DNA of 44,065 nucleotides from a virus (lineage: Duplodnaviria; Heunggongvirae; Uroviricota; Caudoviricetes), in the IMG/VR virus record IMGVR_UViG_2778261088_000003; one strand, 5' to 3'. Positions 17,109 through 17,393 of the stretch are shown piece after piece. The notes beneath the pieces were generated by a model that worked only from the letters and a program-made list of their open reading frames with translations, made no database searches and was not told the origin of the DNA. A program made the translations under genes and the position numbers. Each line of letters begins with the position of its first letter. The first letter of the stretch is position 1.

Positions 17109-17393
17109 GTGGCAAGTATTGCAACAAAAGACAGCATTTGTTCGGGGCACGGAGGATTCCCATCCAGGCCTCCTGTAGAGAGTGAACCACTACTTAAAGT
17201 CAACGGAGTAGAAGTGTTAGTTGATGGTAAGCAATATGCACAGCATACCGATGGAAACAGTACGCACGGTGGGCAAGCTATATCAACCAGGGCATGGTTT
17301 ACCGTCAATGGTAAAGGGATCGTATGCGTTGGTGACCCTGTTTCATGCGGATCTACCGTAGCGTCCGGAGACGGCCTGGTTCAGGTAAGTTAG
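17109..17393 (+). CDS. PAAR-like domain protein (possible spike-tip protein)
   Basis: CSGHGG ... VNGVEV ... STHGG ... FTVNGKGIVCVGDPVSCGSTVASGDGLVQV resembles the three-repeat PAAR pattern. GTG start. Confidence 0.4.
   Translation: MASIATKDSICSGHGGFPSRPPVESEPLLKVNGVEVLVDGKQYAQHTDGNSTHGGQAISTRAWFTVNGKGIVCVGDPVSCGSTVASGDGLVQVS

Follow-up and report, generated by a model that had tools for sequence, protein, structure and literature searches.

What is a small PAAR-like reading frame doing beside a repressor operator, some 9 kb from the gene for the spike that it might cap? The initial annotation of this 44,065-nt stretch of viral DNA (the window) left two answers for the frame at 17109–17393: a spike tip with an unusual expression context, or a small zinc-binding protein of other function. 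The account developed here, which as a whole has a probability of roughly 93%, is that the frame is upfC of a P1-like phage-plasmid, that its product is a PAAR/gp5.4-type tip on the gp5 spike, that the gene belongs to a late unit, and that the nearby C1 operator is directed elsewhere. Published work already covers the gene and the family it belongs to, where the protein sits in the virion and that it is dispensable, and a structure has been deposited, so the identity of upfC is already known. The case carries little weight as a discovery; it shows that a PAAR-type tip can be recognized from raw sequence.

The element and its gene layout

The section of the window at 16600–18300 is matched by 18 phage records at 94.7–98.5% identity, all of them from P1-group phages (P1, P7, SJ46, RCS47 and Ro157c2YLVW). 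The stretch that holds upfC and upfB is found at ≥90% identity in 614 plasmid records, chiefly from Escherichia. Judged from its sequence, the window is a P1-like phage-plasmid, given here in the orientation opposite to that of the P1 reference AF234172. The features on which the argument turns, and the order of the gene blocks around them, are collected in Table 1.

Table 1. Features and gene blocks of the P1-like element in the window
Feature	Position	Strand	Remarks
Late promoter LP26 (AAATGACTA-N4-TAGAAT)	3385–3403	+	drives 26-25-7-24-6-5
26-25-7-24-6-5	3433–8184	+	window gene order, P1 annotation
Gene 5	7552–8184	+	trimeric spike, OB fold and beta-helix, without lysozyme domain or HxH apex motif; partner of UpfC
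dbn, ban, tRNAs, then dmt, hrdC, uhr	after the gene 5 block	−	all on the minus strand
Sigma-70 promoter Pdmt	16982–17011	−	−10 at 16982–16987, −35 at 17006–17011; P1 annotation transferred by alignment
C1 repressor operator Op68/Odmt	17011–17027	−	identical to the annotated P1 site
TAAAAT, candidate −10-like hexamer	17071–17076	+	only conserved one upstream of upfC; no Lpa −22 box beside it
GGTGAT, likely Shine-Dalgarno sequence of upfC	17100–17105	+	read from the sequence; identical in P1
upfC	17109–17393	+	94 aa, GTG start, TAG stop; PAAR/gp5.4-type spike tip
upfB (probable start)	17402–18190	+	262 aa from ATG 17402; reported trimeric "tripod" (PMC12810830)
ppfA	18203–18652	+	Rz-like i-spanin; start in the P1 annotation equivalent to 18230
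mlp	18486–18818	+	Rz1-like lipoprotein o-spanin, overlaps ppfA
upfA	18830–19222	+	last gene of the unit, no assigned function
Intrinsic-terminator-like hairpin	19236–19256	+	9 pairs, then a T run; closes the upfC-upfA unit
upfC, upfB, ppfA, mlp, upfA	after uhr	+	
oriR, repA, parA, parB	after upfA		
23-22-21-pmgG-bplB	after parB		
pmgC-tub-pmgB-sit-pmgA-bplA-16 block	farther along the window		

The distance between spike and supposed tip had been described accurately: 8,924 bp separate the end of gene 5 from the start of upfC. This gap is not peculiar, because P1 morphogenesis genes are habitually scattered, with the tail and baseplate genes spread over at least four separate blocks.

Other parts of the layout deserve mention in their own right. 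A sok antitoxin RNA (Rfam RF01794, 114.9 bits) lies on the minus strand at 28820–28994, just past the bplB end of 23-22-21-pmgG-bplB. The P1 reference annotation has no hok/sok module at the matching site, and the locus is probably an insertion in the P1-like element. C4 antisense RNA and an a1/b1 target (Rfam RF01695 and RF03163) occupy 32443–32528 and 32597–32649, also on the minus strand; the immI region thus exists. Between kilA and the sit block the layout departs from reference P1, and no sim genes were seen there, judged by ORF size.

The upfC reading frame and its family

What supports the frame at 17109–17393 as a gene, and to which family does its product belong? The frame coincides exactly with annotated P1 gene upfC, for which the GenBank entry AF234172 notes 31% identity to T4 ORF 5.4. 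The GGTGAT upstream of it could pair with the 3′ end of 16S rRNA and is likely to act as the Shine-Dalgarno sequence. The homologues in P1, JK004 and D6 are equally long and begin alike (MSAIAT...), in support of the GTG start codon. Length is preserved in relatives as distant as D6 (57% identity) and T4 (30%), and a tblastn search with UpfC matches 1,177 phage records, nearly all of them T4-like gp5.4 genes.

The frame had been called PAAR-like, and the family searches bear this out with matches well above chance. PHROG 281 ("PAAR motif") matches residues 1–93 (E 2e-30), the T4 gp5.4 structures match at E 8.6e-8 (5iv5) and 1.2e-7 (4ku0), and the Vibrio cholerae PAAR structure 4jiv matches at E 3.7e-4. 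The Pfam family PAAR_motif (PF05488) matches residues 51–91 at E 8.5e-6 with 26.4 bits, 0.6 bit short of its gathering cut-off of 27. A three-repeat PAAR pattern had also been claimed. Its family part stands on this homology; the repeat itself does not emerge from comparison of UpfC with itself, where the best 12-residue self-match scores 20 and shuffled sequences reach a maximum of 18 ± 4. The 94 residues contain no literal P-A-A-R string. PAAR repeats are visible here at the level of structure and not in the UpfC sequence, and the family assignment therefore follows from homology rather than from visible repeats. By that homology, UpfC is assigned to the PAAR/T4 gp5.4-type spike-tip family.

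The metal site and the spike that needs a tip

Alignment of the window protein with its counterparts in P1, JK004 and D6 and with T4 gp5.4 leaves four candidate metal ligands invariant, H14, H46, H53 and C80, whereas C11 and C73 vary in the same five proteins. The four residues form a predicted site of three histidines and one cysteine. In T4 gp5.4, three histidines and one cysteine coordinate a metal tetrahedrally, an arrangement that links the tips of the hairpins; this metal has been identified as Fe, and the substitution H14A abolishes binding to gp5 (PMC12407873). Since such a site belongs to the PAAR fold itself, a zinc-binding small protein with some different function is not a real alternative to a spike tip.

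The proposed partner is the product of gene 5, and the reading of 7552–8184 as a gp5-like spike gene is upheld by matches to PHROG 430 (E 1.3e-51) and to PDB entry 9vzk, "Gp5" (E 8e-136), which make it P1 gp5. Its N-terminal Phage_base_V OB domain is matched at E 1.1e-4 with 22.9 bits, against a Pfam cut-off of 23.8 bits. A C-terminal HxH motif gives a spike an apex of its own, whereas spikes without one need a separate tip (PMC12407873). The gp5 sequence of the window contains no HxH motif and only one histidine in all, so the tip of this spike has to be a separate protein.

Position in the virion and dispensability

That UpfC is this tip has support from several published sources besides the GenBank note. 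An HHpred search by Gonzales et al. (2022, PMC9024508) matched UpfC to the T4 spike tip gp5.4 as its P1 equivalent; no other tail proteins of T4 and P1 can be paired by BLAST (PMC12407873). A 2025 preprint places UpfC at the needle tip in an AlphaFold2 multimer model (bioRxiv 10.1101/2025.07.21.665459). In the 2026 cryo-EM study, UpfC was built manually into a baseplate map of 3.2–3.7 Å, and the spike complex of trimeric gp5 and monomeric UpfC closely resembles that of T4 gp5 and gp5.4 (PMC12810830). The deposited chain 9vyi_A, named "UpfC" and 94 residues long, is identical to the window product at 93 of 94 positions (99%; E 1.7e-60), the sole difference being S86 in the window and A86 in P1. 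Our own AlphaFold2 single-sequence model of UpfC (pLDDT 40.5, pTM 0.27) is of too low confidence to use.

In the same cryo-EM study, three UpfB trimers are described as a tripod on the spike tip, fitted as an AlphaFold3 model into density of medium resolution (PMC12810830); no solved structure of UpfB was found. Deletion of upfC leaves plaquing unaffected (PMC9024508), and a genome-wide CRISPRi screen scored both upfC and upfB as non-essential. The identity and family of UpfC and the conservation of its metal ligands are shown, as are its position in the virion, from the literature and the PDB, and the dispensability of upfC for plaque formation.

The operator upstream of upfC

Does the operator upstream of upfC govern it? 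The operator is real, as had been claimed: Op68 differs from the C1 operator consensus by one mismatch. Across the window, six matches to the C1 operator with at most three mismatches are found, against 0.14 expected. They start at 3344, 13478, 13489, 17011, 31048 and 32710, and the divalent Oban pair at 13478–13505 is among them. Op68 abuts the −35 element of Pdmt, which points leftward and drives uhr-hrdC-dmt. It lies 82 bp upstream of the upfC start codon and ends 43 nt ahead of the −10-like hexamer that faces upfC. No C1 operator overlapping or abutting a promoter that faces upfC was found; Op68 belongs at the Pdmt −35. The operator next to upfC is part of the divergent early operon uhr-hrdC-dmt.

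A five-gene unit on the upfC strand

To the right of the operator, upfC heads a single-strand unit of five genes, upfC-upfB-ppfA-mlp-upfA, which are presumably co-transcribed. The start of upfB needs comment. P1 GenBank places it at ATG 17345, giving 281 aa and a 49-nt overlap with upfC. The later ATG 17402 is preceded by a GGAG at 17393–17396, with 8 nt between this ATG and the upfC stop codon. The UpfB homologues of JK004 and D6 begin at or just past the upfC stop, and tblastn aligns them from residue 1 of the short form. Translation of upfB probably starts at ATG 17402.

JK004 keeps the P1 arrangement of the upfC region, with upfC and upfB followed by two small genes. In D6, upfC and upfB are followed by two overlapping small genes, and the upstream neighbor is wholly different (a partition operon). 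The UpfB of D6 is only 27% identical, and tblastn finds UpfB homologues confined to P1-like phages. Farther along the unit, ppfA overlaps mlp, and the two make up a spanin pair of the Rz/Rz1-like type (PHROG 89, E 1.8e-24; PHROG 30284, E 2.2e-77). This pair, at 18203–18818, shares a late unit with the spike tip and lies apart from the lysozyme and holin genes.

Late expression and the promoter of the unit

When is the unit expressed? Published RNA-seq of P1vir gives log fold changes at 10 and 30 min (PMC8201110, Table S1), reproduced in Table 2. The kinetics of upfC parallel those of gene 5, which means that the spike tip is expressed late, like the spike itself. An unusual expression context had been suggested for a spike tip at this locus, and this suggestion falls away: the operator serves Pdmt, upfC is late together with gene 5, and the tail genes are scattered in any case.

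Table 2. Log fold change of P1vir RNA during infection (PMC8201110, Table S1)
Group	Gene	10 min	30 min
upfC unit	upfC	4.86	10.63
upfC unit	upfB	4.12	11.07
upfC unit	ppfA	5.57	11.25
upfC unit	mlp	4.15	10.53
upfC unit	upfA	5.21	11.24
Known late	gene 5	4.23	9.90
Known late	gene 6	3.60	10.81
Known late	gene 26	3.35	10.41
Known late	sit	3.66	11.03
Divergent early operon	uhr	8.62	11.06
Divergent early operon	hrdC	9.40	11.98
Divergent early operon	dmt	8.85	11.25

AF234172 annotates no promoter upstream of upfC. An Lpa-dependent late promoter consists of a 9-bp −22 box (AAGTGACTA-like), a 4-nt spacer and a TANNNT −10, and a position weight matrix for this architecture was built from six annotated P1 promoters (LPpro, LPlyz, LPdar, LPs, LPsit and LP26). 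The matrix scores these six at 17.6–22.2 bits and recovers LP26, LPsit, LPs and a site before gene 23 in the window at 19–22 bits. Between the operator and the upfC start it finds no canonical Lpa box. The best site there, at 17058–17076, reaches 7.5 bits; its −22 box contributes 0.9 bits, against 11.4–13.3 in true late promoters, and the rest comes mostly from TAAAAT. Elsewhere in the window, the matrix gives 16.6 bits to a late-promoter-like site with a good −22 box, AAGTGACTGGTGATAACCT, at 5090–5108 on the plus strand, about 50 nt inside gene 7. This site is unannotated in the P1 reference and, from its match, may be an internal late promoter.

The TAAAAT hexamer has a counterpart in JK004, where TAGCAT stands 31 nt from the start codon, against 32 nt here. 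Comparison of the intergenic region with those of JK004 and D6 brought out nothing beyond this −10-like hexamer, whose distance is conserved in JK004. A scan for the sigma-70 consensus upstream of upfC gave two 9-of-12 matches, and the region total was 4, against 5.6 in shuffled sequences. A −35-like TTTAGA in the window reads TACAGA in P1, so that hexamer is not conserved. We infer that the upfC promoter uses the −10-like hexamer at 17071–17076. Regulation of upfC by Dam was also considered and set aside, as a reading of the 81-nt intergenic region revealed no GATC.

How, then, is the unit activated late? Late activation could come from a degenerate Lpa site or from another factor, or it could be an artefact if the RNA-seq was unstranded. 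It is also conceivable, though quite unlikely, that the unit is activated late without a canonical Lpa −22 box. If true, this would point to a second, undescribed route for P1 late genes, with three candidates: a degenerate Lpa site, some influence of the early transcription that diverges from Pdmt, and another factor. The transcription of a late unit that has no recognizable Lpa box is the residual question at this locus; it is narrow and chiefly of interest to P1 specialists.

Proposed mechanism and alternative readings

On the preferred reading, UpfC would be a single-domain cone of the PAAR/gp5.4 type held together by a tetrahedral metal site made up of H14, H46, H53 and C80. One monomer would bind the blunt, flat end of the trimeric gp5 beta-helix, as homology and the published P1 structure suggest, and would provide the sharp point of the spike that is driven through the outer membrane when the sheath contracts. 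The UpfB tripod would hang on this tip. The unit from upfC to upfA, ending at the terminator-like hairpin, would be switched on late with the other tail genes. By analogy with T4, we infer that the tip may help outer-membrane penetration and fitness.

Could UpfC instead be mainly an adaptor? PAAR proteins of type VI secretion systems (T6SS) serve as adaptors for effectors, and UpfC might similarly dock the UpfB tripod rather than sharpen the spike, with the tripod being cargo or a device for sensing or anchoring to the host surface. The adjacency of upfC and upfB, apparently translationally coupled across the 8-nt gap, is consistent with this, as are the persistence of the pair in D6 despite the divergence of its UpfB, the restriction of UpfB homologues to P1-like phages, and the cryo-EM density of three trimers on the tip that was assigned to UpfB (PMC12810830). 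However, UpfC has no extension domain beyond its 94-aa PAAR core, the UpfB density was assigned at medium resolution only, and neither gene is necessary for plaques. A mainly adaptor role is unlikely, and it would refine the explanation of UpfC as a spike tip rather than exclude it.

The two readings that would remove UpfC from the spike altogether fare much worse. A non-structural, small metal-binding protein under C1 control from the operator region would fit the operator 82 bp from the start codon, and it would also fit the failure of LC-MS/MS to detect UpfC in purified P1 virions, which the authors of that study attribute to its presence as one small copy per virion (PMC9024508). Against this, there is the 9vyi structure of a 99%-identical protein, and P1 cryo-EM models UpfC as a monomeric tip on gp5; the operator abuts the −35 of a leftward promoter and stops 43 nt short of the hexamer facing upfC; and upfC RNA accumulates late, unlike that of the C1-controlled neighbors (PMC8201110). 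Such a protein is very improbable. An unexpressed chance frame is scarcely credible: the GTG start, the shortness of the frame and its overlap with minus-strand ORFs would suit it, but the length of the frame is conserved as far as D6 and T4, relatives are found in 1,177 phage records, its RNA has been detected (PMC8201110), and the protein has been modeled in the virion (PMC12810830, 9vyi).

Comparison with known systems

The closest system is P1 itself, whose UpfC (AAQ14038; 9vyi chain A) is the same gene. The operator, the GTG start and the neighbors are all alike, with uhr-hrdC-dmt running leftward and upfB-ppfA-mlp-upfA rightward in both, and the differences come to one amino-acid substitution and a few base changes in the intergenic region.

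T4 gp5.4 (4ku0, 5iv5) is about 30% identical to UpfC over its full length and has the same invariant three histidines and one cysteine. Like UpfC, it is a monomer on a trimeric gp5 beta-helix, is dispensable for plaques and is late. The settings differ. In T4, gene 5.4 follows gene 5 at a distance of about 1.1 kb and stands just before gene 6, whereas upfC is 8.9 kb from its gene 5 and, unlike T4 5.4, adjoins plasmid-maintenance and early genes. T4 gp5 has a lysozyme domain, which P1 gp5 lacks (PMC9024508, PMC12810830), and no UpfB-like tripod has been described for T4. As the T4 5.4am mutant shows, gp5.4 is not required in the laboratory, but its loss is costly in competition and on deep-rough LPS hosts (PMC12407873). 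By analogy, a conditional phenotype would be expected for loss of upfC from P1.

The PAAR-repeat proteins of T6SS (V. cholerae VCA0105, 4jiv; PF05488) belong to the same domain family as UpfC and cap a trimeric VgrG or gp5-type spike with a cone. UpfC differs from them in serving a phage tail rather than a secretion system, in having no fused effector, and in lacking literal P-A-A-R motifs. Finally, the apex-domain spikes P2 gpV and phi92 gp138 fill the same role, that of a metal-stabilized sharp point on the spike of a contractile tail. In these, the tip is fused to the spike and HxH motifs bind Fe, whereas in the P1-like element the tip is a separate protein, UpfC.
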